Part shown: positions 1-58,921 of the stretch, one piece after another
Position numbering within the stretch: position 1 is the first letter of the stretch
How the letters are laid out: the number at the start of each line of letters is the position of its first letter
IMG/VR virus record: IMGVR_UViG_2579779107_000005
DNA length: 64,000 nucleotides
Direction: 5' to 3' (one strand)
Source: a virus
Taxonomy: Duplodnaviria > Heunggongvirae > Uroviricota > Caudoviricetes
The notes under the pieces: model-generated
Database searches by the model: none
Told to the model about the DNA's origin: nothing
What the model saw: only the letters and a program-made list of their open reading frames with translations
Made by a program: the position numbers and the translations under genes

Positions 1-425
1 AGCGAGCCCCAGCTCTCGATACCGAGGTGCTGGGGGTGGTGGATCGTCGTGGTGCTGACGACCGCGAAGCTGCCAGCCTCCTCGCGACCAGCCCGCGCTT
101 CTGCGACGTCCGCGCGAGCCTGATACCGAGCGGCTGCGTCCAGCAGGTCTCCGCCCTTGCCGAGGGTGTTGATCGAGAAGTCGTCAGCCTTGATCGACTG
201 ACCGGCGACCGTGAGCGCGACGGCGAGCTGTTCCACGAGTACGGCGCACGCGCGCAGGATGTTGCCGTCCTCGAGCACGAGGGCGACGTCGATCGAGTCG
301 TCGGACCAGTAGGCGTAGTCGCCTTTGCCGTCGACGACGCCGGTGGCCTCGGTGTCGCCGAGCACCAGGCGCACGCGGCCGACATCGGTCGCCTTGTCGA
401 GGGGGAAGGTTCCAGAGTTCGCCAC
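1..425 (-). CDS. head-tail connector-like structural protein (partial, 3' end beyond window start)
   Basis: Open minus-strand frame from GTG (about 425-423) running off the left edge. Protein-like translation (VANSGTFPLDKATDVGRVRLVLGDTEATGVVDGKGDYAYWSDDSIDVALVLEDGNIL...). Lies directly downstream of the capsid gene in the late operon. Absent from ORF track because there is no stop in window. Confidence 0.4.
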   Translation of the reverse strand, partial: MANSGTFPLDKATDVGRVRLVLGDTEATGVVDGKGDYAYWSDDSIDVALVLEDGNILRACAVLVEQLAVALTVAGQSIKADDFSINTLGKGGDLLDAAARYQARADVAEARAGREEAGSFAVVSTTTIHHPQHLGIESWGS

Positions 426-443
426 GGCCTCATTCTAGGCCAG

Positions 444-466
444 CTCCCAGCAATCTCCCAGAATGG
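444..466 (-). promoter_or_regulatory. late-gene upstream motif, two copies (plus-strand CTCCCAGCAATCTCCCAGAATGG)
   Basis: Same TCCCAG(N)AA(A/T)C family found upstream of six other minus-strand late genes. Lies 20-45 nt upstream of the GTG at 425. Confidence 0.4.
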
Positions 467-570
467 TCAGTCCCCCGGCGGAGCGGTTGCTCGACGCCGG
501 GGGACCATTGCAAGAGGAGGAGGGGCCTACTTGCTCTCTCAGGATACTCCCAGGTTCGCCGGAATAGCCA

Positions 571-615
571 GCAAAAGGGAGAGGCCCCCGGCGTGTTGCC
601 GAGGGCCTCTCTCTT
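571..615 (-). terminator. rho-independent terminator after major capsid gene
   Basis: Hairpin GAGAGGCCC-N15-GGGCCTCTC. On the minus strand it is followed by TTTTGCTGG. Sits right after the capsid TAA stop. Confidence 0.5.
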
Positions 616-624
616 AGGTGCTGG

Positions 625-1854
625 TTACGGGGCGTCCGTCCCGGCCGCGAGGGTCGGGAACTGGATCGGGCCGCCGGTGCCGTCCGACCAGATGATGAGG
701 TTCTCGTTCCAGAGGACCGCACCGTTGATGTCGCGCAGGCGGTAGGCCAGCGAGTCGTTCTCGAAGGAGCCCTCGAAGGGGCTGATCGAGCCGCCACCGA
801 CGTACGAGCCCTGCAGGTTCTGCACGCGCAGCTCCGGGGTCTCGTAGCCGCGCAGCTTGAGGAACTCGATGACCGGCCGGCGGGTCGAGCCCGGCGTCGG
901 CACGAGGAACCACGTGCCGTCCTCGATGCGCTCGTGCTCGATGAGCGTCACGTTCGAGAGCGAGGAGTGGTTGTAGCGGGCGCCGTCCTCGACGAAGCCG
1001 CCGTCGACGACGCGCAGCACCTTGCGCTGCATCTGGAAGTCCCAGAAGCGCTTGGTGCCGATCGGCACGAACAGGTTGTACGAGGACGCCTCGCCGATCC
1101 GGTTGCCCAGGACCTTGCGGCGCGAACGCTCGTAGATGGCCTGCTCGACGGCCTCCGGGGAGAGCTTCGCCTTCGCCGGGATGACGGTGCCGTCCGGTGC
1201 CGAGCCGCCGGCGAGCTGCGAGGCGTTGGTCACGGACAGGAGCGCGTCGAAGAACTCCGCGATCTTGCCGTCGACCGACACCGACATCAGCTCGCCCGGA
1301 ATCTGCTCGAAGAAGCCCACGGTGTCGTTGATCTGGGCTTCCCAGGTCCAGTCGAACCGCAGACCGCGCTTCGCGAGCTTCTGGTAGAAGCTCTCGAGGC
1401 CGCCCTTGAGCGAGACGAGCGGGTAGAGCCCGCCCTCGGGGATGATCGGGGCCTCACCGTGCTCGCCGAGCGCGGAACCGCGCAGGAGCGACTGGTTGTA
1501 CTCCGACCCCTCGGGGGTCTCGTCACCCTCGCCCCAGTAGAGCGAGTAGAGGTAGACCGGGCGGAAGTCCTTCACCGTGCGGGTGCCGGCCCAGGCGCCC
1601 AGCTCGTGCACCTCGCGGTCGTACTGGGGCACGAACTCCAGGTTGATTGCGTGGGTGAGGTTGACGGAGGCGTCGGTCGAGACGACAGCCTCGCGGAGCT
1701 TGGCGTCCGCGATGAAGTCGCCCTGCATGGCGGAGCGGAAGAGCTTCTGCGCCTCCTTGACCTTGGCCTTGGTGACGCCGGGCTGCGGGTGCAGACGACG
1801 GTCGAGCGTGAACGCGTTCTCGTACGTCCGCTCCTTGAACTGTGCGAGGGTCAC
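625..1854 (-). CDS. major capsid protein
   Basis: 409 aa ORF. Position in portal-protease-capsid order. Size and composition typical of HK97-fold actinophage capsid proteins. Followed by a strong terminator. Confidence 0.7.
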   Translation of the reverse strand: MTLAQFKERTYENAFTLDRRLHPQPGVTKAKVKEAQKLFRSAMQGDFIADAKLREAVVSTDASVNLTHAINLEFVPQYDREVHELGAWAGTRTVKDFRPVYLYSLYWGEGDETPEGSEYNQSLLRGSALGEHGEAPIIPEGGLYPLVSLKGGLESFYQKLAKRGLRFDWTWEAQINDTVGFFEQIPGELMSVSVDGKIAEFFDALLSVTNASQLAGGSAPDGTVIPAKAKLSPEAVEQAIYERSRRKVLGNRIGEASSYNLFVPIGTKRFWDFQMQRKVLRVVDGGFVEDGARYNHSSLSNVTLIEHERIEDGTWFLVPTPGSTRRPVIEFLKLRGYETPELRVQNLQGSYVGGGSISPFEGSFENDSLAYRLRDINGAVLWNENLIIWSDGTGGPIQFPTLAAGTDAP

Positions 1855-2279
1855 TTGACCACGACTCCGATCTTGACGGGGAGGACGCCGCGGTAGCGGA
1901 AGCCCTCGGGGAGGTTGACCACGCCGAAGCCCGGCGTGGTGGCGTCGTCGACCTTGGTCAGCGTCAGCGTCTCGTCGGCGACGACGAAGTAGACCGGGAC
2001 GCCGGTCTTCTCGGTGCCGGTGGCCCCCACGACCGCGAAGTCGAAGGTGCCGGTCGTCTCGACGGTCGATCGCAGCGCGCCCTGGCCGTTGTCCGGCTGG
2101 CGGATGCCCGAGATGGTCAGCCCGCCGACGAGCTGGACGCTCTTGGTCGAGCCGGGGGTGCCGGAGAGCACGACGCCCGCGCGGCCGTGGTTCATGGCGG
2201 CCTCGCCGGGCTTGACGGCCTTGGTGAAGTCCCAGATTTCCTGGGTGCCGGGGATGCTTGCGTAAACCTGTGCGCCCAT
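1851..2279 (-). CDS. head structural/decoration-like protein
   Basis: 142 aa ORF sandwiched between scaffold/protease and capsid genes with 4-nt overlaps. Gly/Thr/Val-rich beta-type composition. Confidence 0.4.
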   Translation of the reverse strand: MGAQVYASIPGTQEIWDFTKAVKPGEAAMNHGRAGVVLSGTPGSTKSVQLVGGLTISGIRQPDNGQGALRSTVETTGTFDFAVVGATGTEKTGVPVYFVVADETLTLTKVDDATTPGFGVVNLPEGFRYRGVLPVKIGVVVK

Positions 2280-2281
2280 GG

Positions 2282-3205
2282 TCAGAACCTCAGTCCCAGC
2301 GAGTAGCTGTCGTTGTCGGCGCCGGCGTCGAACCGGCGCCCGCTCGCGGCCGGCCGGGCCGCCTCGGTGACGTGCGCGATGGCCTCGTCCTTGATCTTCA
2401 CGGCCTCCGCCAGGTCAGCAGTGATGTCCGCGCCCTCTTCGGCGCGCGCGAGCAGCGCGGCCTCCTGGGCGGGGAGCAGCTCGGCGTCCTTGATCGCCTT
2501 GGACGCTGCGGCGAACGCCTGGACAGCCTCCTTGACGGTCGGGGCCTTGGGCTCGTCGCCCGCGGCAGCCGCTGCGGCCTCAGCCGCCTGCTTCTGGTCG
2601 GAGACGAACGCGAGGACCGGGGCGAGAACCTTGGCGACGGCCTTCTCGGCCGCCTCCTCAATCTGCTCGGGGGTCATGTCCTTCTCTCTCTCGTCTGCCG
2701 AGGCGGCAGTACGTCTGTGGTTCTCGAACAGCGCCAGGGCGCGCTCGGAAAGCTTGTCGGCGAGACCGGAGCCTTCGAGGCCCTCTTCGCTCACCAGGTC
2801 GACGGAGTTGGTGCGGTGGTAGACCAGCTCGGTGATGTTGCCCGCCTCGTCCATGCGCCCCATGGCGTAGATCGAGAGGCCCGCGAGCGGGGCCACCTCG
2901 TCGACGAGTTCCTGGTGGCGCGGGAGGACGTGCAGCTCGGCGACGAGTGCGCCGTTGGCGCCCTCCTCGGGGTCCCAGTACGCGCCCTCGGGGTAGTGGC
3001 CGAGGATGTCTCGCGGGTCGCGCTTCCAGTCGTGGTTGATGTACGCCTTGGTGCCGGCGGGGAACGCGAGCGGGCCGTACTGCTTGAGCATCTCGGCGCC
3101 GTAGAAGCCGCTCGAGCCCTGGCCGGGGACGGCGAGGACTGCGCGCCAGCGACCGTCAGCGGTCTTGGCCGCCTGGGCGGTCTCGCAGAGCAGAATGTCC
3201 TTCAC
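2282..3205 (-). CDS. scaffolding / prohead protease-like protein
   Basis: 307 aa, GTG start at 3205. C-terminal half is Ala/Glu-rich coiled-coil (AAEAAAAAAGDEPKAPTVKEAVQAFAAASKAIKDAELLPAQEAALLARAEE), typical of scaffold. Lies between portal and capsid. Confidence 0.5.
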   Translation of the reverse strand: MKDILLCETAQAAKTADGRWRAVLAVPGQGSSGFYGAEMLKQYGPLAFPAGTKAYINHDWKRDPRDILGHYPEGAYWDPEEGANGALVAELHVLPRHQELVDEVAPLAGLSIYAMGRMDEAGNITELVYHRTNSVDLVSEEGLEGSGLADKLSERALALFENHRRTAASADEREKDMTPEQIEEAAEKAVAKVLAPVLAFVSDQKQAAEAAAAAAGDEPKAPTVKEAVQAFAAASKAIKDAELLPAQEAALLARAEEGADITADLAEAVKIKDEAIAHVTEAARPAASGRRFDAGADNDSYSLGLRF

Positions 3206-3224
3206 GCAGCCAACTCTAAGGTAG

Positions 3225-3247
3225 CTCCCAGGAAACTTCCAGAAAAC
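3225..3247 (-). promoter_or_regulatory. late-gene upstream motif, two copies (CTCCCAGGAAACTTCCAGAAAAC)
   Basis: Tandem TCCCAGGAAAC / TCCAGAAAAC. Lies 20-45 nt upstream of the GTG start at 3205. Confidence 0.45.
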
Positions 3248-3256
3248 GCGAATCCG

Positions 3257-4810
3257 CTACTTCGAGACCTTGTCCGATCGCAGGTCGTTGCCCTTCGCGC
3301 CGTTGTCGCCGGTGCCCTTGTTCTTGCCCTGCTCGGGGTTGGCGGCCTGCTTGCCTGCGTCGCCTGAGGCGCCCTGGTCGGCGGGCGCGGCGGAGGCCTT
3401 CGCCTTGGCCTGGAGCTTGAGGCTCTTGAGGTTGTTCGGGCTCATCCAGCCGTCCGGGACTTCGTTGCCGGTGATTTCGAGCAGCTCCGAGATGCGGGCT
3501 TCGATCGGCTCGGGGTTGAACAGCCCGCTATTCAGCGCAAGGATCAGCGCCTGCAGCTCGCGGTACTGGTCCGCGGCGTCGTCGAGAGAGGAGAACGTGA
3601 CCTGCAGCTTCTCCGCGTCGGCACCCATCCAGAGGAGGATGCGACGGTCGAAGTCGATGTGGCGCTGGCGGCGAGCCTCCATGGCGAGTCGCGTGGGCAG
3701 GTCGAGGGTCGAGGCCGAGCCGTAGCTCGAGCCCGCGGAGCCGGGGTCGGACGACAGGGAGACGACGGAGACCTCGAGGGCGGCGGCGACGATCGCAAGG
3801 AGGCTGCGGCCGGAGTCGAAGTCGTAGCCCTTGCCGGCGGTCGGAAGTGGCACCAGCGCGTTCGCGCCGATGAGCGTGGAGCCCGCCTCGGAGGGCTGCG
3901 CGATGCGGGCGGCGACGTTCTCGGTCTCCTTCTTGGTGCCGGCGGCCACCTGGAAGGCGAACTGCGCCATGGCGTCGGACATGACCTTGCCCGACATGAT
4001 GAAGTCGCGGTAGACCTTCGCCCAGGCGAACGCGGTGAGCGCGTCGGGGACGCCGAACGCCCAGCCGACCTGCGAGTTGACGTGCATGTCGAAGATCACT
4101 CGGGCGTCGGGGGCCTTCTCACCCTCCTTGACGATGACCTGGAAGCCGGGCCTGTTCCGGCGGTCGTATGCGAGGTCGGTGTAGTGCCACTCCTTGACGG
4201 CCTTCGGGGCGCCGGTCTGGGCGTCGACGGTCGAGTAGTCGTCGTAGTCGATCCGGTAGGCGATGATTTCGTCGGGGCGTCGCGGGTTCACCTGGATCGC
4301 GCCAACGTACTCGAGCGACCAGGGCTCGAGGGAGTGGTCTGAGGGGTCGCCGAGCACGAGGTAGATGCTGTCGGTGTAGAGGGCGCTCTCACGCTCGTCA
4401 TGCGCCTGGGCGCCGAAGAAGGCGTGCTGGTTCAGGGGATCGCGGACGTACTTCGCCGTCTGCTTCTTGATGCCGGAGCCCTCGGGGAGCGCGTCGTCGT
4501 TGTAGTGGATGCCGCCGCGCCAGATGTTGTTGGTGCGAAGGCGGAGACCGCGCTGCATGTGGACGTTCCCGAGAGCGTTGCGCATCTTGCGCGACCATTC
4601 CTTGAGCTGGTCGAGGTCAGGCCCGGTGGACACCTCGGAGGTGCCGAAGACCTTGGACCAGCCGACGTCCTCCGCCTCGAGCATGGCGTTCCAGCGGAGC
4701 TGCTCGCGGAGGCCCTGCGATACCGCCTGCTCTCGGTCGAGCACCGCCTCGAGGGCGGCAAGGCGGTCTTCCTGGAGCACCAGCTCGGCTACAACGACTT
4801 CTTCACTCAC
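3257..4810 (-). CDS. portal protein
   Basis: Large ORF directly downstream of TerL. ORF track extends to 4984, but the likely start is the GTG (VSEEVVVAELV) at 4810 after the TerL stop at 4852. About 517 aa. Position and size fit a portal. Confidence 0.7.
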   Translation of the reverse strand: MSEEVVVAELVLQEDRLAALEAVLDREQAVSQGLREQLRWNAMLEAEDVGWSKVFGTSEVSTGPDLDQLKEWSRKMRNALGNVHMQRGLRLRTNNIWRGGIHYNDDALPEGSGIKKQTAKYVRDPLNQHAFFGAQAHDERESALYTDSIYLVLGDPSDHSLEPWSLEYVGAIQVNPRRPDEIIAYRIDYDDYSTVDAQTGAPKAVKEWHYTDLAYDRRNRPGFQVIVKEGEKAPDARVIFDMHVNSQVGWAFGVPDALTAFAWAKVYRDFIMSGKVMSDAMAQFAFQVAAGTKKETENVAARIAQPSEAGSTLIGANALVPLPTAGKGYDFDSGRSLLAIVAAALEVSVVSLSSDPGSAGSSYGSASTLDLPTRLAMEARRQRHIDFDRRILLWMGADAEKLQVTFSSLDDAADQYRELQALILALNSGLFNPEPIEARISELLEITGNEVPDGWMSPNNLKSLKLQAKAKASAAPADQGASGDAGKQAANPEQGKNKGTGDNGAKGNDLRSDKVSK

Positions 4811-4839
4811 GCCAGCGATCTTACAGTCAGTTCTCAGGG

Positions 4840-4852
4840 TTTTCCCAGAAAC
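4840..4852 (-). promoter_or_regulatory. late-gene upstream motif (TTTTCCCAGAAAC)
   Basis: Motif abuts the TerL stop and lies about 30 nt upstream of the portal GTG. Confidence 0.4.
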
Positions 4853-6669
4853 TAAAGAGGGGTTCCCACTGCGTTCCGTCGGATGTTGAGCATCTCGAAG
4901 GGGTCGCGCATCACCGTGGTGCCCTTCTTCATCTTGTTCACGGGGTCGTCGAGCCCGGGAAGGAGGGCTGAGGCGTAGATGCACGTGTCTGCCGCGTCGG
5001 GCGACTTGACGCCTCGCTTCTTCATTGACTCCTTGCTCTCGATGAGCATGGCGTTGTAGGGCGGCGCGACCTCGTAGAGGATGTCGCCGAGCTGCTCGAG
5101 GAGTAGCGCATCCTCGGGATCGAGGTCGATGAGCCCCTTCTCCATGCGGTCGCGCATCTTGTCGTACTGGAAGGCGCGATCGTTCTTGTGCACGTTGGGA
5201 TCGGGCGCCGAGCGCGAACCGAGCATCGAGATGATGGTGTACGGCGGATTGGCGCCGGCGACGGAGAACAGGGCGTCGATGAGGCCCTGGCCGATGCCCG
5301 AGCCGTCGATTCGGACCTGCTGGACGCCCAGGTTGACGGCGTGCTGATGGATGAGCGTGGCCTGGCCGACCGTGTGCAGGAGTCCGCCGTTGGGGTCGTT
5401 CTCCACGCGGTCGGTGAAGGGCTTGCCCCGGAAGCTGTCGACGTAGCGAATGCGCGCGCCTTCAACATCGGAGACGTTCCCCAGCTCGCTCGTGACGTGG
5501 CCGTCATCGTGGACGGTCTCGACCCACTCGTACATGAGGCCGGACTCGGAGAGGTAGAGGAAGGTCGAGTCGCCGGACTCTGCGCGGGCGACGTCGACGC
5601 CGAGGAAGCGCCGGCTATCGTCCGGGATGAAGCACTCGGCGTCCCGAGCCTTGCCGAGCGCGTACTCCGAGAAGAGGTTGTTGCCCTCGTCGTAGGCGAA
5701 CATGCCGAGCACCCGGGAGCGGAAGCGCGGGGAGTCGACACCGTACTCGAGGCGCTTCTCCTCGACGTAAGTGGGGCCGGAGAGCGAGCGCAGTGCCTCG
5801 GCGGAGAGCCCGAGGCCGAGCGGCAGGAGGTCGTGTTCGGCCTTGCGCGGGCAGTCGTCGGCGCAGAGCCCGCCTCCGTGGAAGTTGGGGGAGTCGAGCA
5901 CCGAGATAGCGTGCAAATCCCAGGAGACGCCGTAGGGTTCGCCGGTCTTCTCGTTGATCTTGCCGGAGAAGATGGCACCCAGTCGCGACGCTGGGTTCGT
6001 CGGGTTGGCGATCAGCAGACGGCGCGAGGTGTCGTTCGAGGTGATGTTGGAGAGCGAGTCGATCATCGCCTCGTTCAGGCCCACCGCCTCGTCGCCGATG
6101 GCGAGGACGTACTGGGCATGGATGCCCTGGAAGGCGTCCTCCTTATGGTCCGGCGGCTTGCGACCCTGGGCGATGAGCACGCCGAGCGAGGTCTTCCACT
6201 CGTCGTTGCCGGTGATGTAGCCGGGGAGCTGGTGGTCCGGGTAGCCGGCGGTGTCCTTGCCCTCGGCCTGCAGGCGCTTGAACTCCTTGTGGCGGTCGAT
6301 CGACTTCGCCATGAGTCCACGGATTTCGCGCCAGAGGATCGCCTTGACCTGTGCGGCTGATGGAGCGGTGGTCGCCACGAATGCGGAGCCGAGCGGGTGC
6401 ACGTCGATCCACCAGCACACAAGCACGGCGGAGAGGAACGACTTGCCGACACCGTGGCCGGCGCGCACGGCGACGGACTTCTTCTTGCCGATGGCGATGG
6501 CGTAGGCAATCTCCTGCTGCTTCCACCACAGGTCGACGTCGAGGATGTCCTTGGCCCACAGCACCGGGTCGGTGATGTACTTCGCCTTGCGTGCGTCGGC
6601 GCGCAGACCGTCCTCGACGTGGGGGAGGAGGTCTGTGAGCCAGCCGGCGTCGGCGACCGCCATGCTCAC
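4852..6669 (-). CDS. terminase large subunit
   Basis: 605 aa. Walker A (VRAGHGVGKS) and Walker B-like (VLAIGDEA) ATPase motifs, plus a C-terminal nuclease-type acidic region. Classic TerL position upstream of portal. Confidence 0.85.
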   Translation of the reverse strand: MSMAVADAGWLTDLLPHVEDGLRADARKAKYITDPVLWAKDILDVDLWWKQQEIAYAIAIGKKKSVAVRAGHGVGKSFLSAVLVCWWIDVHPLGSAFVATTAPSAAQVKAILWREIRGLMAKSIDRHKEFKRLQAEGKDTAGYPDHQLPGYITGNDEWKTSLGVLIAQGRKPPDHKEDAFQGIHAQYVLAIGDEAVGLNEAMIDSLSNITSNDTSRRLLIANPTNPASRLGAIFSGKINEKTGEPYGVSWDLHAISVLDSPNFHGGGLCADDCPRKAEHDLLPLGLGLSAEALRSLSGPTYVEEKRLEYGVDSPRFRSRVLGMFAYDEGNNLFSEYALGKARDAECFIPDDSRRFLGVDVARAESGDSTFLYLSESGLMYEWVETVHDDGHVTSELGNVSDVEGARIRYVDSFRGKPFTDRVENDPNGGLLHTVGQATLIHQHAVNLGVQQVRIDGSGIGQGLIDALFSVAGANPPYTIISMLGSRSAPDPNVHKNDRAFQYDKMRDRMEKGLIDLDPEDALLLEQLGDILYEVAPPYNAMLIESKESMKKRGVKSPDAADTCIYASALLPGLDDPVNKMKKGTTVMRDPFEMLNIRRNAVGTPL

Positions 6670-7196
6670 TGCTGCTCGATCCTCTTCTCGACCGTCTCGA
6701 CGGCGGCCGGGAGCTTGAGCAGGAAGACCTCCTGGACCTCGGCGGTCGGGACGTCGTGACGACGCGCCAGCTCGTCGGCGGCGGCGAGCATGGCGACCTG
6801 GATCGCCGCGAGCATGATCCGGGCCTGGCCTTCGCGGACCTGGTTGGCGAGCTTCTCCGGGTCGATGCGGTTCTTGTTGATCTGGTCCTGCTTCATCTTG
6901 AGCGCCTTGAGCGCCGTGTTGATGTGCTGGACGCTTCCGGCTTCGATTCCCGTGCGCAGGCTCGAGATGATGTCGTTGATCGACTCGAGGAGGAGCTGTT
7001 CCTGCTCGAAGTACGTGAGCCAGTTGCGATTCTCGAGCAGGTCTCGGACGCGCTGTGCGGCCTGCTCAGGCGACACCACGCCATTGACGGCCTGCGACAT
7101 CTCCTTGGGGCTGAGGCCGTCAGAGGCGGCGCGCAGGAGCTTCCGGTCGAGGGGACCGTTCGCGAGACCGCGCTCGTACTTCTGGACTTCTGCCAC
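6666..7196 (-). CDS. terminase small subunit (putative)
   Basis: 176 aa ORF overlapping the TerL start by 4 nt. First gene of the late operon. Helical composition. No specific motif, so called by position. Confidence 0.45.
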   Translation of the reverse strand: MAEVQKYERGLANGPLDRKLLRAASDGLSPKEMSQAVNGVVSPEQAAQRVRDLLENRNWLTYFEQEQLLLESINDIISSLRTGIEAGSVQHINTALKALKMKQDQINKNRIDPEKLANQVREGQARIMLAAIQVAMLAAADELARRHDVPTAEVQEVFLLKLPAAVETVEKRIEQQ

Positions 7197-7216
7197 GCGA
7201 CTACTCTAGGGTGGCT

Positions 7217-7237
7217 CTCGGGAAACTCCCAGGAAAC
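7217..7237 (-). promoter_or_regulatory. late-gene upstream motif, two copies (CTCGGGAAACTCCCAGGAAAC)
   Basis: Lies 20-40 nt upstream of the TerS start at 7196. Confidence 0.45.
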
Positions 7238-7245
7238 GGGTGGCG

Positions 7246-7290
7246 AGAGCCCCGGTCGACTTGAACTCGGCCGGGGCTCTCGTTTTGGGC
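7246..7290 (+). terminator. hairpin plus T-tract (terminator-like), T-tract used as IS target
   Basis: GAGCCCCGG-N15-CCGGGGCTC followed by TCGTTTTGGG. The T-tract is duplicated at 10152-10166 as the IS target-site duplication. Confidence 0.35.
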
Positions 7291-7293
7291 TTG
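7279..7293. repeat. target-site duplication, left copy (CTCGTTTTGGGCTTG)
   Basis: Identical 15-mer at 10152-10166. Each copy directly abuts a terminal inverted repeat of the IS481-like element. Confidence 0.6.
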
Positions 7294-7487
7294 TGTCATG
7301 TCGCAGGAGATGGGTGACGGTTCTGTATCAGGACATCGGTGACAGTTTGGGTGGTCTTGGTGGTGACACTTCATGGCGGGGGCGCTGGTTGTTCTCGTGA
7401 CTCCGGCATTGCAGCGGCCATGAGGGAGGGGTGCGAGCAAAGGCTCGCACCCCTCCGGAATCGTCTATTCGGTTTTCACCGTCTTGG

Positions 7488-7715
7488 TTAGGTCGGGTGG
7501 TTGATGCGTGCTGGGGCCTGCTTGCGAGAACGCAGCCGCCGGTATCTCTGTCCGAGGAAGTAGAGGCCTGGTGCTCCGAGCGCGGTCGCGAGGATTGCCT
7601 GCATCGTGGCGTTGAGCATCACCAGGACGGCGGCCATGGCCGCGCCGACGAGCAACGACACGAAGAAGTCCTCTACGAGGTAGTAAAGCGACTTCGGTTC
7701 TTTAGCACTTGACAT
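7488..7715 (-). CDS. small membrane protein (IS passenger)
   Basis: 75 aa ORF with one strongly hydrophobic segment (FFVSLLVGAAMAAVLVMLNATMQAILATALGAPGLYFLG). Inside the IS, upstream of the secreted-protein gene. Confidence 0.3.
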   Translation of the reverse strand: MSSAKEPKSLYYLVEDFFVSLLVGAAMAAVLVMLNATMQAILATALGAPGLYFLGQRYRRLRSRKQAPARINHPT

Positions 7716-8634
7716 CGTAGATCAGCCCCGGTCCGACGTATGGAATGTTCAACTGGATGCAACGTCCTGCCTTGAGGGCGTTGGTGGCGGCGTTCTTGAC
7801 GATCTGGAAACCCAGGTTTGCCACAGTAGTACAGGCCGCACCAGCAAGCCCGCCGATGATGCAGAGATAGGAGAACATCTGCCCGGCGCTGGCGAAGTCG
7901 GCGGCCTGTTTCGTCTCTGCCTTAGTGAATTTCGCCGTCCTACCCCACCACAGCCAGGTAACCGACGGATCTGCGACCACCGGGAACGCTGTCGTGGCGG
8001 TGAAGTCTACGACCTGGGTGAGCGTGTTGCCATTCAGCTCGTAGTGCGTGGGGACGGCTACGCCGTTAGCGTCTTTCGCCCACGGTGCAGCGATGTAGGC
8101 GAGGGTAGCGCCGTCACCGTTCACGACGAAGTAGGCCTCGCCCGCCTGAAGTATCTGGCCCCCGTCTGGAACGGTGAGTGCGTAATCATACCGTTTCGGG
8201 GCGATTGCAGCGGTGATGACCGTGTTGATTTGAATCGAGCCGTCGGTTGTGACTACGGGGACCGAGCTGGAGCCGTTGTTGTTGTCGTAGGAGACGACAC
8301 CGTCTTTCTCGACGTTTACGTTGCTGGCGCCGCCGGCGTAAGGCAGCCCCACCGACAGCACGCCCGCCGCGGTGCCGAGCGTGATGCCCGAAACCGGGTC
8401 AATCGGGACAGTGACATCCGCCCCCGACACCTGCGCATCGATCGCGTTCTCACCCGAATCTGTCGTCGCGACTGCCGCAGCGTTGTTTGCAGTCTCCGGC
8501 GTCGCGCTCGTCACCGTGCCGAGGACGTCACCTGCGCCGTTGTCTGCAAGCGCGGGTGCAGCGCCCAACAGTGCTAGCGACATGATCACTGTCGTTACGA
8601 TCGCCGCTTCCCCCAGATATTTCCTGATCCGCAT
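7702..8634 (-). CDS. secreted protein of unknown function (IS passenger)
   Basis: 310 aa. N-terminal signal peptide (MRIRKYLGEAAIVTTVIMSLALLGAAPALA). Gly/Thr/Val-rich beta composition with a C-terminal Cys pair. Locally lower GC. Confidence 0.5.
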   Translation of the reverse strand: MRIRKYLGEAAIVTTVIMSLALLGAAPALADNGAGDVLGTVTSATPETANNAAAVATTDSGENAIDAQVSGADVTVPIDPVSGITLGTAAGVLSVGLPYAGGASNVNVEKDGVVSYDNNNGSSSVPVVTTDGSIQINTVITAAIAPKRYDYALTVPDGGQILQAGEAYFVVNGDGATLAYIAAPWAKDANGVAVPTHYELNGNTLTQVVDFTATTAFPVVADPSVTWLWWGRTAKFTKAETKQAADFASAGQMFSYLCIIGGLAGAACTTVANLGFQIVKNAATNALKAGRCIQLNIPYVGPGLIYDVKC

Positions 8635-8811
8635 TGTGTTTCAACTTTCTTGTCGAGACCAATGGAACTGACAGTGCTCGCCACCCGCCCTGCGGAGCGA
8701 TCGGATCAGCTACCCCCTGGATGGCGAACGTAACAGCCGCCGACCACGGCCCGCAATCCCGCGGCTCCAGCGGACGCAAACGGCCAGGAGCGTTTGGTTG
8801 GGAGGCTCATC

Positions 8812-10091
8812 GAGTGACAGCGAATGAACCTATCGATCCCCGAATCCGTCTCGCGATCGCACAGTGGCCCGACGATGCGCCGCATGGTGCCATCTCGACG
8901 TTCTGCATTGAGCACAGCATCTCACGCAAGTCGTTCTACGAGTTACGAAAACGCGCGCAGACGGAGGGGCCGGCGGCAGTGCTCGAGCCGCGGTCCAGAC
9001 GTCCGAAGTCAAGTCCAGCGCGGATTCAGGACAACATGAAGTCTCAGGCGCTACAGGTGAGAGCCGCCTTGGAATTGTCCGGTCTGGACCACGGGCCCAT
9101 CAGCGTGCACGACAGGATGCGCTCGATGGGAATCGACAGTGTGCCCTCGATCGCATCGCTGGCCCGAATTTTCCGGGAAGCGGGAGTGGCCAAACTTGAG
9201 CCAAAGAAGAAACCTCGATCGGCATGGCGGCGGTTCGTCTATCCAGCACCGAATGCGTGCTGGCAACTCGACGCCACCGAGTACGTCCTCACCGGTGGCC
9301 GTAAGTGCGTCATCTTCCAACTGATTGACGATCACTCCCGCTTCGCAGTCGCTTCTCATGTCGCATGGGGTGAAACTTCCGAGGCCGCCGTGGCGATATT
9401 CGACAAGGGGGTTCGTGCGCATGGAGTGCCCCAACGGCTCCTGTCCGATAACGGGGCAGCGCTGAACCCCTCGCGTCGTGGGATCCTGGGCCAACTAGTG
9501 AAACACGCCTCCGCCCTAGGAACCGAGGCCATCACCGGCAAACCCTACAAGCCGACCACTCAGGGCAAGAACGAACGTTTTCACCAAACCCTGTTCCGCT
9601 ACCTCGACAAGCAACCCCTGGCAACCACCCTGGCAGAGCTCCAGGGTCAGGTTGACACGTTCGACCGCATCTACAACACCCAGCGTCCCCACCAGGGACT
9701 CCCCGGACGCGCGACGCCCCAAACAGCGTGGGATGCCACCCCGAAGGCGGACGCACCCCGACCCAAACCAGAACAGCCCCTCTTCGCCCGAACGGCCAGC
9801 AAACGCTTCCACCGCGCGCCCGCACCGACCGAACTGCCAGACGGCGTCGTCCTCAGAAACCTGAGCAGCGCCGGCACGTTCACACTCGGACGAGTCACCT
9901 ACATCGTCGGCGGCCAGTACCGCTTCCAGCAGGTCCTAGCCATCGTTGACGGCGACACGATCACCGTCTCCAACCTCGACGGCGAGATCCTTATCGAGCA
10001 CACCCGCCCACCCGCCGGGGTGACCTACGTCGGCAACGGCAGACCCAGCGGCCCACGCCCCAAAAACTCCACAACGTCACCGAAGTCCTGA
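8812..10091 (+). CDS. IS481-family DDE transposase
   Basis: N-terminal HTH region then an rve-type DDE core (WQLDATE, LLSDNGAA, KNERFHQTL). ORF track starts at 8634, but GTG 8812 (VTANEPIDPRIRLAIAQW) is the likely start. Confidence 0.8.
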
Positions 10092-10151
10092 GACACCAAC
10101 TGTCGCCGGTCTCCTGATACAGAACTGTCACCGATGTCGCGAGACAAGACA

Positions 10152-10166
10152 CTCGTTTTGGGCTTG
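10152..10166. repeat. target-site duplication, right copy (CTCGTTTTGGGCTTG)
   Basis: See left copy at 7279-7293. Confidence 0.6.
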
Positions 10167-10179
10167 CGCTCGGCCCCAA

Positions 10180-10195
10180 TCGAACATATGTTCGA
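10180..10195. promoter_or_regulatory. perfect 16-bp palindrome TCGAACATATGTTCGA
   Basis: Perfect dyad in an AT-richer stretch between the DGQHR gene 3' end and the original TerS upstream region. Candidate operator/late-promoter element. Confidence 0.35.
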
Positions 10196-10371
10196 TACAT
10201 GGGATGGGGAAGGTCGAACGAAGAAGGTTTCCGGGGTCAGTACCCGGCGCCGCTGGATTGGGATGCGATCGAGCAGGAGTTACTCGCAAAGGCGGCAGGA
10301 GACAGCGAACCGCCCCAGCGCGGTCGGGATACGCCGGGGCGGCCGGTGAGCGACGAGCAGGACTAGGGGGC

Positions 10372-11808
10372 CTACAGGTCGCCCGTCTCGCGAGCTGCTC
10401 GCGCAGCCGCGGTCTCGGGGCGAAGGAGGGCGTCGGCCTCCTCCTCGGTCAGGCTGTCGAAGTCGAACTCCGCCTCTGCCGGCCGCGGGGTGGGCGCAGC
10501 GTTCAGGAAGTCCGGCTTGTCGATAGCCCAACCGACGAATGCGTCAACGACGGCGACCGCATCCTGGCGGCGGCTCGAGGGAGCGCTCATGCCGGGAATG
10601 AAGCTCGGCATGCCGATCTGCTCGAACAGCATCGAGCCCTCCCAGATGGGCACCTCGAGGTGCGGAGCGAGCTTCTTGAAGAACTCCTCGACCATGGCCG
10701 TCGAGAAGGCGTGGTCAGTCACCAGCTCGTAGCGCGTTGCGGCGAGGATGCGCAGGAAGACCGGAGCGCCAAGGAGCGAGTGGGCGCGCAGGTCGTCGGC
10801 CGTGATCTGCCCATGCTGGAGCTGGTAGAGCGGCGGGAAGGCGCGAACGAGCGAATCGAAGAAGTCCTTGGCGTTCTTCTCGATTTCCTTGTCGTTGAGC
10901 TGTGCCTCCACGCGCTTGCCGACTCGGCCTTCGTAGCCGACCGTGAGGGCGCGCACGGTCTCGATGACGTACTTGGCGGTGGTGAAGTACGGGGACTTCT
11001 GCGGTAGCCGGTCGGTCTCGGTCTCGACGCGATTCGCGAGCAGCGGGTGGCTCAGGATGTCCTCGAGCGCACGGTTGACCGCCTTGCGGGAGTCGAAGCG
11101 TGCGCGGACGGACGCCGTGATGCCCTTCGCGTTCTCGGCAATGTCGTAGAACGCCTGACGGTAGTTCTGGGGGTCGGCCTCCACCATGATCTGCACGGGG
11201 ATGCGCTCGCGGGTGAATCGCGCCGCCTGGGTCTCGAGCGCCGCCTTCTGGCGCTCGAACTCGGCGACAGCATTTCCATCCTCAATGCGGCGCGCCTTCT
11301 TGATTAGCTCGCTGATCTTCGCTACGTCGGCGTTTATCCCGTCGAGGGCCTCGTACAGACCGAGGATTCGGTGCTGACCGTCGAGGATGTGGACCTCGCC
11401 AACCGCGGAGCGCTGGAAGGAGACGGCGCCGAAGGCCACGCCGTGTGCCTCATCGGTTGCGGCCTCGAACTCGAAGGGGCGCTCGGTGCGCAGAATGATG
11501 CCGGGCACGACCCACTCGGGGGTGGCGCGCAGGTATGTGGCGAAGTCGCTCGCGTGCTTGGGGTTGATGCGGCGGTTCCCCACAGTGGGGACCTCGGGGT
11601 TCGGCCGCGGGACGAGGGACATGATCTGCAGCAGCGACAGGTCCAAGAGGTAGTTCGTACGACCGCCCTGGACGAACCGAGTGCCGTAGTAGGTCTCCTT
11701 GGTGTTGTAGCCCGTGGCCGCGGGCAGTGTGGACAGATTCAGTGACATATTCATCCCGTCAAGGGTGGTGGGGTGCGCGGGCTGCGCGTTTTGCGGTCTA
11801 TATATCAT
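10372..11808 (-). CDS. DGQHR-domain protein (DndB-like, ParB/Srx-fold)
   Basis: 478 aa with the signature ILDGQHRILG and surrounding DndB-type conserved blocks. No dndACDE or dpdA partners visible in the window. Confidence 0.7.
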   Translation of the reverse strand: MIYRPQNAQPAHPTTLDGMNMSLNLSTLPAATGYNTKETYYGTRFVQGGRTNYLLDLSLLQIMSLVPRPNPEVPTVGNRRINPKHASDFATYLRATPEWVVPGIILRTERPFEFEAATDEAHGVAFGAVSFQRSAVGEVHILDGQHRILGLYEALDGINADVAKISELIKKARRIEDGNAVAEFERQKAALETQAARFTRERIPVQIMVEADPQNYRQAFYDIAENAKGITASVRARFDSRKAVNRALEDILSHPLLANRVETETDRLPQKSPYFTTAKYVIETVRALTVGYEGRVGKRVEAQLNDKEIEKNAKDFFDSLVRAFPPLYQLQHGQITADDLRAHSLLGAPVFLRILAATRYELVTDHAFSTAMVEEFFKKLAPHLEVPIWEGSMLFEQIGMPSFIPGMSAPSSRRQDAVAVVDAFVGWAIDKPDFLNAAPTPRPAEAEFDFDSLTEEEADALLRPETAAARAARETGDL

Positions 11809-25990: not shown

Positions 25991-26290
25991 ACCAGCTATC
26001 TCACTATGTAGCTAATATATTCATATAGTTAGTTGTATTAAGAGCATAGAGATAGTGTCACTACAACTCCCTGGTCAGGCCCCATTTCGCCCGCCCCGGA
26101 AAATCAACAACAACGGTCACATAGCGGGCTAATTCGCACTACATCGTGGACATACGCTATAAAGAAGCTGCACGCATCTTCATCAGGGTGCATAGCGGAT
26201 CGATATAGCGCATGTCGGCGATATAGCGGGAAATCCGCAGCAATGTGACCGGTATAGCCGATCCTGAACTTAGCTGGCTATTCGAACATC
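25990..26290. repeat. AT-rich segment plus iteron-like (T)ATAGCGG repeats (putative origin/regulatory region)
   Basis: AT-rich 25990-26060 (CTAATATATTCATATAGTTAGTTGTATTAAGAGCATAGAGATAG). Six (T)ATAGC(G/C)(G) repeats at about 26121, 26192, 26205, 26222, 26253 and 26270. Largest gap in the early plus block. Confidence 0.45.
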
Positions 26291-26332
26291 AACCCCTCAC
26301 GAACACTCGAACATTCATTCGATTGGAGCATC

Positions 26333-26719
26333 ATGACGAACACCGCGGAGAGAGAGACGCACGCCGATGCGAGCGCACCTGTGACCCTTCCGGCGCGGAA
26401 GTTCTTCGCGCTCGGCACCGAGGACCTGCTGGGCGGCGAGCACATCGGCCGGGTCATCTACCTCGAGCACTTCATGCGGATCGACCGGTTCGGCAGCCGC
26501 AACAGCAAGGAGCTGCGCGTCCGCAGCAAGACCCACATCGGGACCGTCGCGGCGGTCGTCGAGCACCGCGGCACCCGTGAGTACGGCGACATCGAGAGCC
26601 TGCGCCAGGCCGACAACTCGGACTTCCCCGACTACCACGTCGAGGTCATCTTCGCCGACGGCACCCACATCTTCATCCACGAGCGGGACACCGCGAACGT
26701 CACGGTGGTCGAGGCGTGA
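26333..26719 (+). CDS. hypothetical protein
   Basis: 128 aa ORF. Confidence 0.45.
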   Translation: MTNTAERETHADASAPVTLPARKFFALGTEDLLGGEHIGRVIYLEHFMRIDRFGSRNSKELRVRSKTHIGTVAAVVEHRGTREYGDIESLRQADNSDFPDYHVEVIFADGTHIFIHERDTANVTVVEA

Positions 26720-38833: not shown

Positions 38834-39705
38834 TCGAACTCAGGACAATCATCGGGACGGGCTTCGTCACGACTCCGACGTTCGAGGCGATGCGCTTCCC
38901 GGCAGGGGAGTCGCACGTCAAGATCGCTAACGAGAACGCCGGCAAGGGGTCGCTCACCGAGGTGGCGCGGCTCTACGGTCACGACCCGGCCGACCTGTTC
39001 ACCTTGGCGATGTGGGCGGACGCCGTGCACCAGCGTGGTTCTCGCGCCGTCGCCCAGATTCCCTACCTGCCGGGCGCCCGCGCCGACCGCGGGCTCCCGT
39101 TCGGAGCCAAGGTCTACGCGAAGTTCCTCAACGAGCTGCAGCTCGACAAGGTGGTCGCCGTCGACGTGCATTCGCCCGTCATGGAGAACCTCGTCGAGCG
39201 GCTCGCCGTCGTCGACTCTGCCCCCATCATCCGCCGGCAGGTCGTCGGACGCCCCGACCGCGACGAGCACGCCCAGCGCCACACCGGCATCATCGCCCCC
39301 GACAAGGGAGCGCGCCGCCGTGCCGAAGCGGTCGCCGCCATCTGTGGGCTCCCGGTCTATCAAGCCGAGAAGCACCGCGACGAGGCCACCGGCAAGCTCT
39401 CCGGCTTCTCATGCGAGCCTCTTCCCGAGGACGGCAAGTTCCTCGTCGTCGACGACATTTGCGACGGCGGCGGGACCTTCATGGGGCTCGCTGCCGCCAC
39501 CGGGGTGCCCAGAGAGCGACTCGACCTCTGGGTGACGCATGGCGTCTTCACCGGCGCCGCACCCGCCCTGCGCCACCGCTTCGGCCACCTCTGGACCACC
39601 GACTCGTTCTCGAGCCCGCTGCTCAAGGAGGACTGGCTGCCGGTCCCCGCCAACTTCCTCACCCGCATCTCCCTCGCCCCCTACATGAACGGAGCCCTTC
39701 TGTGA
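38830..39705 (+). CDS. Prs-like phosphoribosyltransferase (ribose-phosphate pyrophosphokinase / possible ADPR-PP synthetase)
   Basis: PRPP-binding loop FLVVDDICDGGGT. Prs-like length (about 291 aa). GTGA-overlapped with the upstream gene and overlaps the NAMPT-like gene. Confidence 0.65.
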   Translation: MIELRTIIGTGFVTTPTFEAMRFPAGESHVKIANENAGKGSLTEVARLYGHDPADLFTLAMWADAVHQRGSRAVAQIPYLPGARADRGLPFGAKVYAKFLNELQLDKVVAVDVHSPVMENLVERLAVVDSAPIIRRQVVGRPDRDEHAQRHTGIIAPDKGARRRAEAVAAICGLPVYQAEKHRDEATGKLSGFSCEPLPEDGKFLVVDDICDGGGTFMGLAAATGVPRERLDLWVTHGVFTGAAPALRHRFGHLWTTDSFSSPLLKEDWLPVPANFLTRISLAPYMNGALL

Positions 39706-41222
39706 GCGCCATTGCGCCCCTCCTCGAGACCGACGCCTACAAGCTCGACCACCGGCGGCAGTACCCCGCCGGGACCAGCAGGGTGTACTCGAACTTCACC
39801 AACCGCGGCAGCCGCATCCCCGGTGTGACGCACGTCGTCCACTTCGGCCTGCAGGCGTTCCTGCAGCGCTACCTCATGGACGGCTTCAAGGCGTTCTTCG
39901 CCGCCGACGAGGACGCTGTGGCCCTGGCCTACGAGCGCGCCGTCGCGTCGATCCTCGGCCCGAACGACGTCGGCTCCGACCATATCCGCGCACTCCACCA
40001 GCTCGGTCACATCCCGCTCCGCTTCGCCGCGGTGCCCGAGGGCACGCCTGTCCCGCTGCGCGTCCCGTCGTTCACCGTCGAGAACACCCACCCGGACTTC
40101 TTCTGGCTCACCAACTACATCGAGACCGTGCTCAGCGCGTCCGTGTGGGGGCCGTCGACGAGCGCCACGATCGCCCGCGAGTACCGCAAGGTGCTCGACG
40201 ACGCGGCCGAGCGCACGGGTGGCAGCAAGGAGGCGGTGGACTTCCAGCTCCACGACTTCTCCTACCGCGGGATGCCCGGCACCGAGGCGGCAGCCGCATC
40301 CGGCGCCGGCCACCTCCTGAGCTTCAAGGGCAGCGACTCCCTCGCCTCCCTCGAGTGGATCGACACCTACTACGGCGACAACCCGTGGCGCACGGACCTC
40401 TACCCGTCGCACACCGGCCTGCCGAACGGCCTCATCCTCGGCAGCGTGCCGGCCACTGAGCACAGCGTGATGTGCGCTGGCGGACAGGACGACGAGGAAG
40501 AGACGTACGAGCGCCTGCTCGAGCTGTACCCCAGCGGCATCGTCTCGATCGTCTCCGACACCTGGGACCTCTGGCACGTCGTCATGAGTATCCTCCCGCG
40601 GCTCCGCCACGACATCATGCAGCGCGACGGCAAGGTTGTGATCCGCCCCGACTCCGGCGATCCCGCGGACATCATCTGCGGCACGCGGCGCACGAAGCGC
40701 GGCTACAACGACGCGGCGGGCACCCCAGAAGAGGCCGGCCTGATCGAGCTGCTGTGGGAGATTTTCGGCGGTACGACGGTCAAGGGCCTCAAGGTGCTGG
40801 ACCCGCACATCGGTGCGATCTACGGCGACAGCATCACCATCGACCGGGCGCGCGACATCATCGAGCGTCTCGAGGCGAAGGGATTCGCGCCGAGCAACAT
40901 TGTCTTCGGTGTCGGCTCGTACACCTACCAGTACGTCACCCGCGACACCTTCGGGTCCGCGATCAAGGCGACGTACGTCGTGGTGGATGGCGAGGGTCGC
41001 AACATCCAGAAGGCGCCCAAGACCGACAACGGCCTCAAGAAGAGCGCCACGGGCCGCCTGGCGGTGGTGCGCTCCAACGGCGAGCTGACGCTTATCCAGG
41101 AGGCTTCGCCGGCCCTGGAGGCCGTCTCGGAGCTGCAGCCGGTCTGGGAGGACGGGCAGTTCATCACCTACCAGTCCTTCGCCGACGTGCGGCGCCAGCT
41201 CGCGCTCTCGACGGATGGCTAG
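39701..41222 (+). CDS. nadV: nicotinamide phosphoribosyltransferase-like (NAMPT/NadV family, possible Namat)
   Basis: About 506 aa. N-terminal TDAYKLDHRRQYP signature of NAMPT and conserved downstream blocks. Confidence 0.8.
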
Positions 41223-43305: not shown

Positions 43306-43396
43306 CAGTAGCCAGCTAAATCGGGCCGCTGCGCACCGATCATCACTCCCCATGTGGGTAAAGACGATCCGGTCGAGATGCGCAGCGGTCCCATCG

Positions 43397-43484
43397 TCCT
43401 CGTAGCTCAGCAGGCAGAGCACTGAGTCGCCGGCGCCGGCGCGAACGAGACAGAGGCCGCGGGTTCGAACCCCGCCGAGGACGC
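43397..43484 (+). tRNA. tRNA-like element (atypical or degenerate; anticodon arm not canonical)
   Basis: Canonical acceptor pair GTCCTCG/CGAGGAC, D-arm TAGCTCAGCAGGCAGAGC and T-arm GCGGG-TTCGAAC-CCCGC. The 37-nt middle is a GC palindrome (GCCGGCGCCGGC) with no 5-7-5 anticodon stem-loop that I could find. Confidence 0.35.
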
Positions 43485-51059: not shown

Positions 51060-51380
51060 TCAGGCGGACAGGTGCCTCTTGGCGATGAAGCTGCTGATCG
51101 CCAGCAGCAGGGACGCGACGGACGCGACGTACAGCGCCGGCTGGCCGTCGAGGAAGCCGGCGGCGGTCGCGCCGACCGTGCCCACGGCGCCGAGCCACTT
51201 GCCGGTCTCGTAGATCGCGGCGCGGGCCTTCGCGGGGAGCTTCGACTCCACGACGTCGGCCACCGCATCGACGGTGCCGTTCTCGCTGGCGCCCTCCACG
51301 ATGTCCTTGAGCTTGTCGATGCCGTCAGGGGTGATTTCGTGCTTGCCCACGCGCTCTCTTTCTACTGGCAGGAATCGCAC
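51060..51380 (-). CDS. small membrane protein (holin-like)
   Basis: 106 aa. C-terminal TM segment (LYVASVASLLLAISSFIA). Last gene of the minus late block. Confidence 0.4.
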   Translation of the reverse strand: MRFLPVERERVGKHEITPDGIDKLKDIVEGASENGTVDAVADVVESKLPAKARAAIYETGKWLGAVGTVGATAAGFLDGQPALYVASVASLLLAISSFIAKRHLSA

Positions 51381-51478
51381 TGCAGTGCGTCCATCGGGTC
51401 GGTCGGGACGAAGTAACCGCCCGCGGTCTCGTTGCTGTTCTCGTTCATGGCCTCGTAATTCTCTCGCGGTTCTGCCCG

Positions 51479-52846: not shown

Positions 52847-52869
52847 GCTGGTCCTCCTGAGTTAGCCGG

Positions 52870-53196: not shown

Positions 53197-53197
53197 G

Positions 53198-54037: not shown

Positions 54038-54072
54038 GAGTATCCTTCCGTCACCAGGGAGTCTACAGCGCA

Positions 54073-58914: not shown

Positions 58915-58921
58915 TCTGTCA

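Follow-up and report, generated by a model that had tools for sequence, protein, structure and literature searches.

We propose that a 2,858-bp insertion sequence (IS) found in the DNA of a tailed phage belongs to a clade of mobile elements that use the operators of the SOS repressor LexA as landmarks for insertion. The element occupies positions 7294–10151 of a 64-kb stretch of phage DNA (IMG/VR record IMGVR_UViG_2579779107_000005), which we refer to as the window and on which all coordinates are given. Our reading, to which we assign a probability of roughly 0.8, is that 7294–10151 is a cargo-carrying derivative of an actinobacterial IS of the IS481 family, normally ~1.44 kb long, whose clade homes to LexA operators, and that the derivative moved as a unit into a Leifsonia phage. 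The features that delimit the element and its presumed target are the following.

7279–7293, no strand: left copy of the target-site duplication (TSD), CTCGTTTTGGGCTTG
7294–7352, plus strand: left terminal inverted repeat (IRL), beginning TGTCATG
10093–10151, minus strand: right terminal inverted repeat (IRR), with the end ...CAAGACA
10152–10166, no strand: right copy of the TSD
10180–10195, no strand: perfect LexA (SOS) box TCGAACATATGTTCGA, separated from the duplication by 13 bp and from the end of the IS by 28 bp

The 15-mer CTCGTTTTGGGCTTG occurs exactly twice in the window, at the two positions listed; with up to two mismatches allowed, 0.10 matches would be expected, and none of 100 shuffled sequences reached two. 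The arms of the terminal inverted repeats (7293–7352 and 10093–10152, 60 nt, 80% complementary) directly abut the 15-bp repeats, and because the two kinds of repeat are flush the element is delimited as 7294–10151, with the ends TGTCATG...CAAGACA (TGT...ACA). IRL holds two copies of the motif CAGGA(C/G)AT(C/G)GGTGAC, and the left end conserved in the clade extends past it to position 7372 (...CTTGGTGGTGACACTTC). The cargo lies inside the inverted repeats and the TSD flanks the whole unit. The GC content of the element is 61.8%, compared with 65.5% and 64.7% in the 3-kb flanks and 66.7% in the window, and the GC content at third codon positions is 0.73–0.76 in the genes of the element versus 0.91 in the large terminase gene. 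The initial annotation of this DNA had described direct repeats flush with imperfect inverted repeats, a lower GC content inside them, and a hairpin and a 16-bp palindrome in the region split by the insertion; all of these are present, the latter two at 7244–7282 and 10180–10195.

The palindrome matches TCGAAC-N4-GTTCGA perfectly and is the only perfect box of this kind in the 64-kb window. The same sequence is the LexA-binding consensus defined for M. tuberculosis (PMC3381160). We infer that it was the targeting signal for the window element, on the basis of a comparison with related insertions.

Transposases 67–79% identical to that of the window element are abundant in Actinomycetota, where they are encoded by elements of 1,416–1,477 bp that share the inverted-repeat architecture and have no cargo; one such canonical relative (L003) is flanked by a perfect 15-bp TSD. 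The first four elements read had TCGAAC-N4-GTTCGA 27–28 bp outside one end. For the systematic count, 80 loci were fetched from actinobacterial genomes and the IS ends were placed by alignment to the inverted repeats only. Elements were counted if both ends and at least 70 bp of flank were present (n = 57), and a box was defined as a match to the consensus with at most two mismatches. A box lies 26–30 bp from one end in 50 of the 57 elements, with a mode of 29 bp. The background frequency (42 boxes in 283,630 flank positions) leads to an expectation of 0.15, so the excess is ~330-fold (binomial p ~5e-121). The box is found on the left side in 27 cases and on the right side in 23, that is, the element can have either orientation, and all 50 flanks are unique and represent 50 different sites. 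At these sites the TSD is 15 bp long in 30 and 14 bp long in 6, and the gap between TSD and box is 14 bp in 27 of 38, compared with 13 bp in the window. When the sites are aligned on the box, a position matrix contains no information in the TSD or the spacer and strong information in the palindrome, which extends to a central A-T-A-T and to flanking A/T, positions that were not part of the selection. Mismatches to the consensus number 13 in the IS-proximal half of the boxes versus 25 in the distal half. Where one genome holds several copies, these sit at different boxes (L051/L052/L055 and L073/L074/L076). Immediately past the boxes begin genes that read away from the element; they include lexA (L047), dnaE2 (L013), three AlkB-like dioxygenases and ten DUF222 proteins. 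Such genes are classic members of the actinobacterial SOS regulon, and because they adjoin the boxes, the boxes at these related sites are indicated to be genuine LexA operators.

A second, independent set was assembled from 78 metagenome contigs, among which 36 elements at 69% identity or more were counted; the box is present in 25 of them. Taken together, the genomes and metagenomes contain ~75 independent natural insertions at the same distance from LexA boxes. The same arrangement is seen in an IMG/VR prophage contig, where the canonical copy is flanked by a 15-bp TSD and the box is 29 bp away. Four metagenomic elements (L106, L134, L138 and L143) lack a TSD and have a correctly spaced box on each side; they are most likely chimeric assemblies that join the flanks of different IS copies, and they serve as a caution that contigs from short-read metagenomes are risky material for TSD analysis of multicopy IS.

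The association does not extend to all relatives. ISArsp8 has no LexA box near either end, and relatives at 61–68% identity have a box in none of 11 cases. Operator targeting consequently appears as a property of one clade (~69% identity or more) rather than of all IS481 elements with long duplications. A comparison of the residues that separate the LexA-box clade from its non-targeting relatives yielded one position only, L375, which is uninformative because the outgroup is heterogeneous. A different pattern is seen in four metagenomic relatives without a LexA box (L166, L172, L175 and L163), whose transposases are 61–64% identical. Three of them (L166, L172 and L175) have tandem TTGNNNACA-N2-TTGNNNACA repeats, for example TTGCCCACATTTTGCCCACA, which resemble DnaA boxes and lie 21–32 nt from one end; L163 has a near-match (GTGGACACATTTTGGACACA). 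The strict pattern occurs in 3 of 32 flanks, in none of 211 flanks of the LexA clade and at none of ~393,000 background positions. These repeats may be a different landmark used by a sister clade, on evidence that is thin.

That the window element is a true insertion follows from related phages in which the homologous region is uninterrupted. The initial annotation had named phages lacking the insertion as the relevant comparison, and two metagenomic phage contigs (L089 and L090), whose small terminase subunit (TerS) is 95% identical to that of the window, supply it: the order is a small open reading frame (ORF), TCGAACATATGTTCGA, GAGCGCAAG.., a hairpin, a promoter-like motif and TerS, and taking the element and one TSD copy out of the window makes it collinear with both contigs. 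In three more distant contigs (L091, L092 and L094) a DndB-like gene is followed directly by a hairpin and TerS. The insertion is probably recent, as the initial annotation had suggested, since the TSD is perfect, the transposase ORF and the inverted repeats are intact and the related phages are uninterrupted. The exact empty-site 28-mer was not found in the metagenome and viral collections, a megablast search of the element against 50,697 phage records gave no match, and neither did scans of IMG/VR with the TerS and large terminase proteins. A more sensitive blastn search with the left flank returned only ~67% matches to terminase genes of Microbacterium and Arthrobacter phages; no deposited phage is close. 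The occupied site itself is recorded independently in a 4.7-kb contig of a Sequence Read Archive assembly, which contains the DndB-like gene, the 55-aa ORF described below, the transposase, the passenger, a 75-aa ORF and TerS. The passenger and transposase are also 100% identical to proteins recorded on a 638,457-bp contig of Leifsonia aquatica.

The transposase determines the placement of the element within known families.

8814–10091, plus strand: transposase, 425 aa, GTG start after GGGAGG

The initial annotation had placed a DDE/rve transposase gene at 8812–10091. The gene is real, with Pfam matches to rve (5e-12) and rve_3 (1e-14), both above the cut-offs, and to HTH_28, as well as to HTH_29 and HTH_32. 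Its start is at the GTG at 8814, because the frame read from 8812 is out of phase and contains 11 stops. The exact 425-aa protein has no database record; the recorded form uses a 456-aa start chosen by a gene caller. The protein consists of N-terminal helix-turn-helix (HTH) domains, an rve/DDE core with D153, D212 and E254 (spacings of 59 and 42 residues), a proline-rich linker and a small C-terminal beta-barrel. Among proteins of solved structure, retroviral integrases are the closest to the core in sequence. The C-terminal 120 residues are specific to the clade and are modelled as the linker and barrel with a predicted local distance difference test score of ~88; a fold search with this domain gave as the best hit the IS21 transposase IstA, at a non-significant E of 0.3. 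By far the best NCBIfam model is that of IS481 (NF033577), at 194.6 bits compared with a cut-off of 224 bits, and the NCBI label on the identical protein is IS481 family transposase. The ISArsp8 transposase is 41% identical over residues 26–308 (E 4e-61), and ISArsp8 is listed as an ISfinder-registered IS481-family element of the Arthrobacter plasmid pA58H2 (PMC6305408). Inverted repeats beginning with TGT are found in the window element and ~130 relatives. The assignment to an IS481-type DDE element made in the initial annotation is supported by the best-scoring model and by the NCBI name. Target duplications in the IS481 family range from 2 to 15 bp, with 6 bp in most members (PMC10045372); the 15-bp TSD of the window element is at the upper limit of the family and typical of its own clade.

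The way in which these observations fit together can be stated as a model. Members of the clade insert to one side of a TCGAAC-N4-GTTCGA operator, with the element in either orientation; the two strand transfers take place ~14 and ~29 bp away from the box edge, so that a 15-bp duplication arises 13–14 bp off the box and the box itself stays intact. In the phage, the target would have been the single perfect SOS box, located ahead of a small gene that has the DndB-like gene on one side and the packaging genes on the other. Such a site would act as a safe haven: the SOS promoter would stay downstream of the element, the sequence to 28–29 bp upstream of the box is restored by the 15-bp duplication, and the regulated gene would therefore survive. 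The initial annotation attributed the site to the hairpin and T-tract instead, and the end of the hairpin and its T-tract do fall partly within the duplicated 15-mer. However, if DNA structure or an AT-rich tract had set the site and the palindrome were incidental, the 50 genomic sites should share something of the kind, and they contain neither information in the TSD and spacer nor a common hairpin; the box at a fixed distance is the only shared feature. We regard this explanation as very improbable and take the determinant to be the neighbouring palindrome, which the initial annotation had listed without connecting it to the insertion. Selection is still harder to credit as the cause. The sites are intergenic, upstream of promoters and plausibly neutral, and one could imagine random insertion with survival only upstream of SOS promoters, but survival cannot produce a spacing of 26–30 bp with a mode of 29 or a ~330-fold excess when many intergenic positions are equally harmless, nor the same spacing at different boxes in multicopy genomes. 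Least probable of all is that the mobile element carries the box with it, or that the 2.86-kb segment is ancestral phage DNA. These ideas have only the proximity of box and element in their favor, whereas the TSD lies between the inverted repeat and the box, the box is on one side only and this can be the left or the right, the flanks beyond the box are unrelated between sites, and related phages have the box without the element.

A more difficult question is how the box is recognized within the model of operator targeting. We consider it an even bet that recognition occurs via bound LexA protein, by analogy with systems in which host factors guide retroviral and long terminal repeat (LTR) retrotransposon integrases by tethering; a LexA dimer on its operator would then act as a landing beacon for the transpososome. 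We count toward such a tether that the inverted repeats do not resemble the box, that the best (non-significant) fold match of the C-terminal barrel is IstA rather than a sequence-reading domain, that a symmetric dimer as landmark would agree with the absence of an orientation bias, and that retroviral integrases, to which the core is related, are well known to be targeted by tethering. It is also possible, if clearly short of an even chance, that the transposase itself reads the palindrome via an HTH or its C-terminal domain, and that LexA has no role, the motif being merely conserved and safe. The several HTH-type matches (HTH_28, HTH_29 and HTH_32) would provide the means, and direct recognition has a precedent in Tn7, whose TnsD recognizes attTn7 directly. 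Boxes with one degenerate half-site are still used, and the proximal half has fewer mismatches than the distal half (13 and 25). On the other hand, the box has nothing in common with the inverted repeats, to which the N-terminal domain must bind, the C-terminal domain is modelled as a generic transposase beta-barrel, and the used sites fit the LexA motif even at unselected positions. None of these points is decisive.

Several observations weigh against parts of our interpretation. The box is absent from 7 of the 57 genome elements and 11 of the 36 metagenome elements; most of these also have no TSD and may be rearranged or chimeric, yet the TSDs of two (L071 and L148) are perfect. The 2,858-bp element is known from a single site. 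The score of the transposase lies below the NCBIfam cut-off for IS481. Tethering and direct recognition of DNA predict the same genomic pattern. The roles of promoters and terminators were judged by eye, the consensus scan described below being null. Finally, our search of an open-access literature collection turned up no paper tying such insertion sequences to LexA or SOS boxes.

The consequences for the phage depend on the genes and signals that surround the insertion.

7200–7232, minus strand: promoter-like motif CTGGGAGTTTCCCGAG..TAGAGT, directly upstream of the TerS start codon (7196), intact
7244–7282, no strand: phage hairpin with 19-nt arms; the duplicated target overlaps its last bases and the T-tract after it
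10199–10366, plus strand: 55-aa ORF (MGWGRSNEEGFRGQYPAPLDW...), starting 3 nt past the box and reading away from the IS
10372–11808: protein of the DndB/DGQHR family, adjoining the packaging genes

The first ~33 residues of the 55-aa ORF are conserved in L089 and L090, with differences that are mostly synonymous third-position changes, and the ORF has no family match. It may be a candidate LexA-controlled, damage-inducible phage gene, such as an antirepressor, and in this sense the insertion flags the one perfect SOS box of the phage, together with the small gene that follows, as a probable switch responding to DNA damage. Another LexA-like box, which has one mismatch (TCGAACATTCATTCGA), is found at 26307–26322, with a half-site at 26281–26290; it lies 10 nt upstream of the ATG of an ORF at 26333–26719 (128 aa, no family match) and no IS adjoins it.

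On the other side of the insertion, the window and all the related phages have CTGGGAGTTTCCCGAG..TAGAGT no more than 45 bp from the TerS start. In the form CTGGG(A/C)GTT(T/C)(C/G)C..TAGA(G/A)T it is conserved in L089, L091 and L094, where TerS is only 69–95% identical. The motif looks like a late promoter that would produce a leaderless or near-leaderless TerS mRNA. A consensus promoter scan of 7100–10450 found no sigma-70-type site, and terminator-like hits were at the level expected by chance; because of this result, all our statements on promoters are matters of interpretation. The initial annotation had suggested that the insertion might be polar on the control of the late operon. This is unsupported, and a polar effect is unlikely, because the motif is intact and located downstream of the insertion, on the TerS side. 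The label TerS for the gene at 6666–7196 is based on position only, the protein having no family match. The hairpin is found at the equivalent place in the related phages.

The remainder of the window is that of a phage, in the sense that all ORFs scanned are phage-like. Portal, protease and major head genes occupy the left end (1–7196, minus strand) and tail genes the right end (51060–63986, minus strand), including the tape measure gene at 61953–63986, while the plus-strand middle genes encode an ArdA-like protein, an SNF2 helicase, a nicotinamide phosphoribosyltransferase (NAMPT), a Sak4-like ATPase and PrimPol. The arrangement with head genes on the left and tail genes on the right looks like that of a circularly permuted or wrapped phage genome somewhat larger than 64 kb. 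It is plausible that the phage DNA resides in the host as a prophage or episome; no integrase was found among the window ORFs scanned and no attachment site was identified, the annotation of the window being incomplete. As a separate observation, the phage encodes a NAMPT-type enzyme and a tRNA-Ala(GGC), at 39012–41222 and 43396–43484, respectively.

The cargo accounts for the difference in size between the window element and its canonical relatives.

7373–8797, minus strand: cargo block of ~1,425 bp, delimited by comparison with L002, L003, L006, L010, L026 and L053
7425–7456, no strand: hairpin with a perfect 14-bp stem, GGAGGGGTGCGAGC-aaag-GCTCGCACCCCTCC, just past the stop of the 75-aa ORF
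7488–7715, minus strand: 75-aa ORF with two hydrophobic stretches and a 14-nt overlap with the end of the 310-aa gene
7702–8634, minus strand: cargo gene, 310 aa, with a signal-peptide-like N-terminus

The canonical relatives compared for this purpose are 1.43–1.45 kb long, and the comparison places the cargo within an 18-nt leader that follows the conserved left end (...GGTGACACTTC) and precedes the ribosome-binding site of the transposase gene. Both the signal-peptide protein on the opposite strand and the small membrane ORF noted in the initial annotation are present. The 310-aa protein has an N-terminal hydrophobic, signal-like segment ending ALA|D, and its structure model contains a beta-supersandwich core (residues ~40–225) and a C-terminal helical hairpin; judging from this model, it is probably an envelope or glycan-binding protein. 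The hairpin at 7425–7456 probably terminates transcription of the cargo operon. We found 172 homologues of the 310-aa protein, the most similar at 62% identity; nearly all come from Leifsonia and related Microbacteriaceae, where they occur in ordinary chromosomal contexts; in one Leifsonia locus (L088) the gene is followed by a similar overlapping ORF of 70 aa. From these comparisons we read the cargo as a Leifsonia chromosomal gene pair captured in the leader.

The initial annotation considered a passenger gene in an IS481-type element unusual, a view that does not agree with the record. Cargo-carrying members of the family have been published, namely TnRErm46 (PMC6794481) and ISArsp12 (PMC6305408), and at least two more are found in the present clade. 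A 2,394-bp member in Branchiibius cervicis (L075, 2904–5297) has a 15-bp TSD, a LexA box at 29 bp and a 265-aa S-adenosylmethionine (SAM)-methyltransferase-like ORF downstream of the transposase and inside the inverted repeats. In Gordonia tangerina, G. aichiensis and G. otitidis (L022, L025 and L028, 1–4341) the transposase has an ars operon (ArsR, ACR3 and ArsC) attached to it at the point of the leader where the window element has its cargo. This unit of at least 4.3 kb is 99.9% identical across three species and sites, its identity ends exactly at IRR, and a LexA box is present at 28–29 bp in two of the right flanks but not the third; it is probably an arsenic-resistance transposon of the same clade, with a left end beyond the 3-kb flank. 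The closest transposase relative of all (79%) is found in Plantibacter flavus (L001/L004), where IRR is 27 bp from a LexA-like box. No recognizable IRL is present in the 4 kb upstream, and at the same leader position unrelated DNA begins, which encodes a DUF305 protein and M23 peptidases, so that this is either a copy with a long cargo or a truncated one.

Comparison with known systems helps to separate what is new from what is not. The closest parallel is the ISAba32 subgroup of the IS1202 family (bioRxiv 10.1101/2022.12.17.520857), whose members are likewise DDE elements with a single transposase and TGT ends, distantly related to IS481 and IS3, that repeatedly insert a short, constant distance away from where a host protein binds DNA; some carry a passenger, and the family has discrete classes of TSD length. 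The target of ISAba32, however, is the XerC/D recombinase site (xrs/dif-like), 5–6 bp away, with a 5–6-bp TSD and one orientation, whereas the clade described here, from Actinomycetota, uses a repressor operator, leaves 13–14 bp between it and a 15-bp TSD, and inserts in either orientation. TnRErm46/ISRe46 (PMC6794481) and ISArsp12/ISPfr21 (PMC6305408) share with the window element the IS481-type transposase, the TGT...ACA ends and a cargo that lies within the inverted repeats and moves as part of the unit. They differ in having transposases of the 333-aa class, 6-bp NCTAGN duplications and no operator targeting, compared with a 425-aa transposase with a C-terminal extension and 15-bp duplications in the present clade. 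ISArsp8 (PMC6305408) resembles the clade in its 15-bp TSD and in inverted repeats built from two CAGGACATCG-type repeats; in contrast, its transposase is similar over the core only and neither of its ends is near a LexA box. Other IS481 members with a 15-bp TSD are ISMac4, ISA0963-1 and IS481EU, for which no target motif has been reported (PMC10045372).

Insertion at a fixed distance from a protein-recognized sequence that stays intact is also the strategy of Tn7, through TnsD and attTn7, and of the 'res-site hunters' Tn5053/Tn402, and the safe-haven logic is the same. These are multi-protein systems with dedicated selectors (TnsD in one case, TniQ and bound resolvase in the other) and they are orientation-specific, whereas the present clade has one protein and no orientation bias. 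Tethered integration is known from HIV (IN-LEDGF), MLV (IN-BET), Ty3 (TFIIIB) and Ty5 (Sir4). The integrases of retroviruses and LTR retrotransposons share with the clade an rve fold and a small C-terminal beta-barrel; they are eukaryotic and their contact with the host protein has been demonstrated, whereas recruitment by a DNA-bound host factor is only inferred here.

What was already known thus includes 15-bp duplications in parts of the IS481 family (PMC10045372), cargo-carrying IS481 elements, and insertion sequences that home to a protein-binding site (ISAba32). In view of these precedents, and with no link to LexA in the literature searched, the novelty would consist in the type of landmark, namely site-directed transposition that uses the operator of a global repressor. 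The cargo and the possible polarity were the ordinary part of the earlier reading, and it was the overlooked palindrome next to the insertion that led to the interesting result.

The choice of target is the least understood step for most insertion sequences, and the clade described here provides a case in which the preference for one 16-bp operator, at a constant offset, is almost absolute. If the transposase is recruited by LexA, the clade would be a compact bacterial model of integration tethered by a host factor, and would link the SOS state of the cell to the landing of mobile DNA; if the transposase reads the DNA itself, it would be a small, naturally sequence-directed DDE integrase. In practical terms, the fixed offset supplies an annotation rule for locating both the ends of these elements and SOS boxes. 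More broadly, and tentatively, since we hold this a little short of even, an actinobacterial clade of one-protein DDE elements may use LexA on SOS boxes as a beacon, sister clades may use other protein-binding sites, transposition may be coupled to the SOS state, and LexA-controlled promoters may be preferred points of entry for cargo. Whichever way the box is recognized, operator targeting would explain why the elements accumulate ahead of lexA, dnaE2 and similar genes and in LexA-controlled regions of phages, and how the clade ferries cargo such as an envelope protein, arsenic resistance or a methyltransferase into phages and chromosomes without destroying genes.

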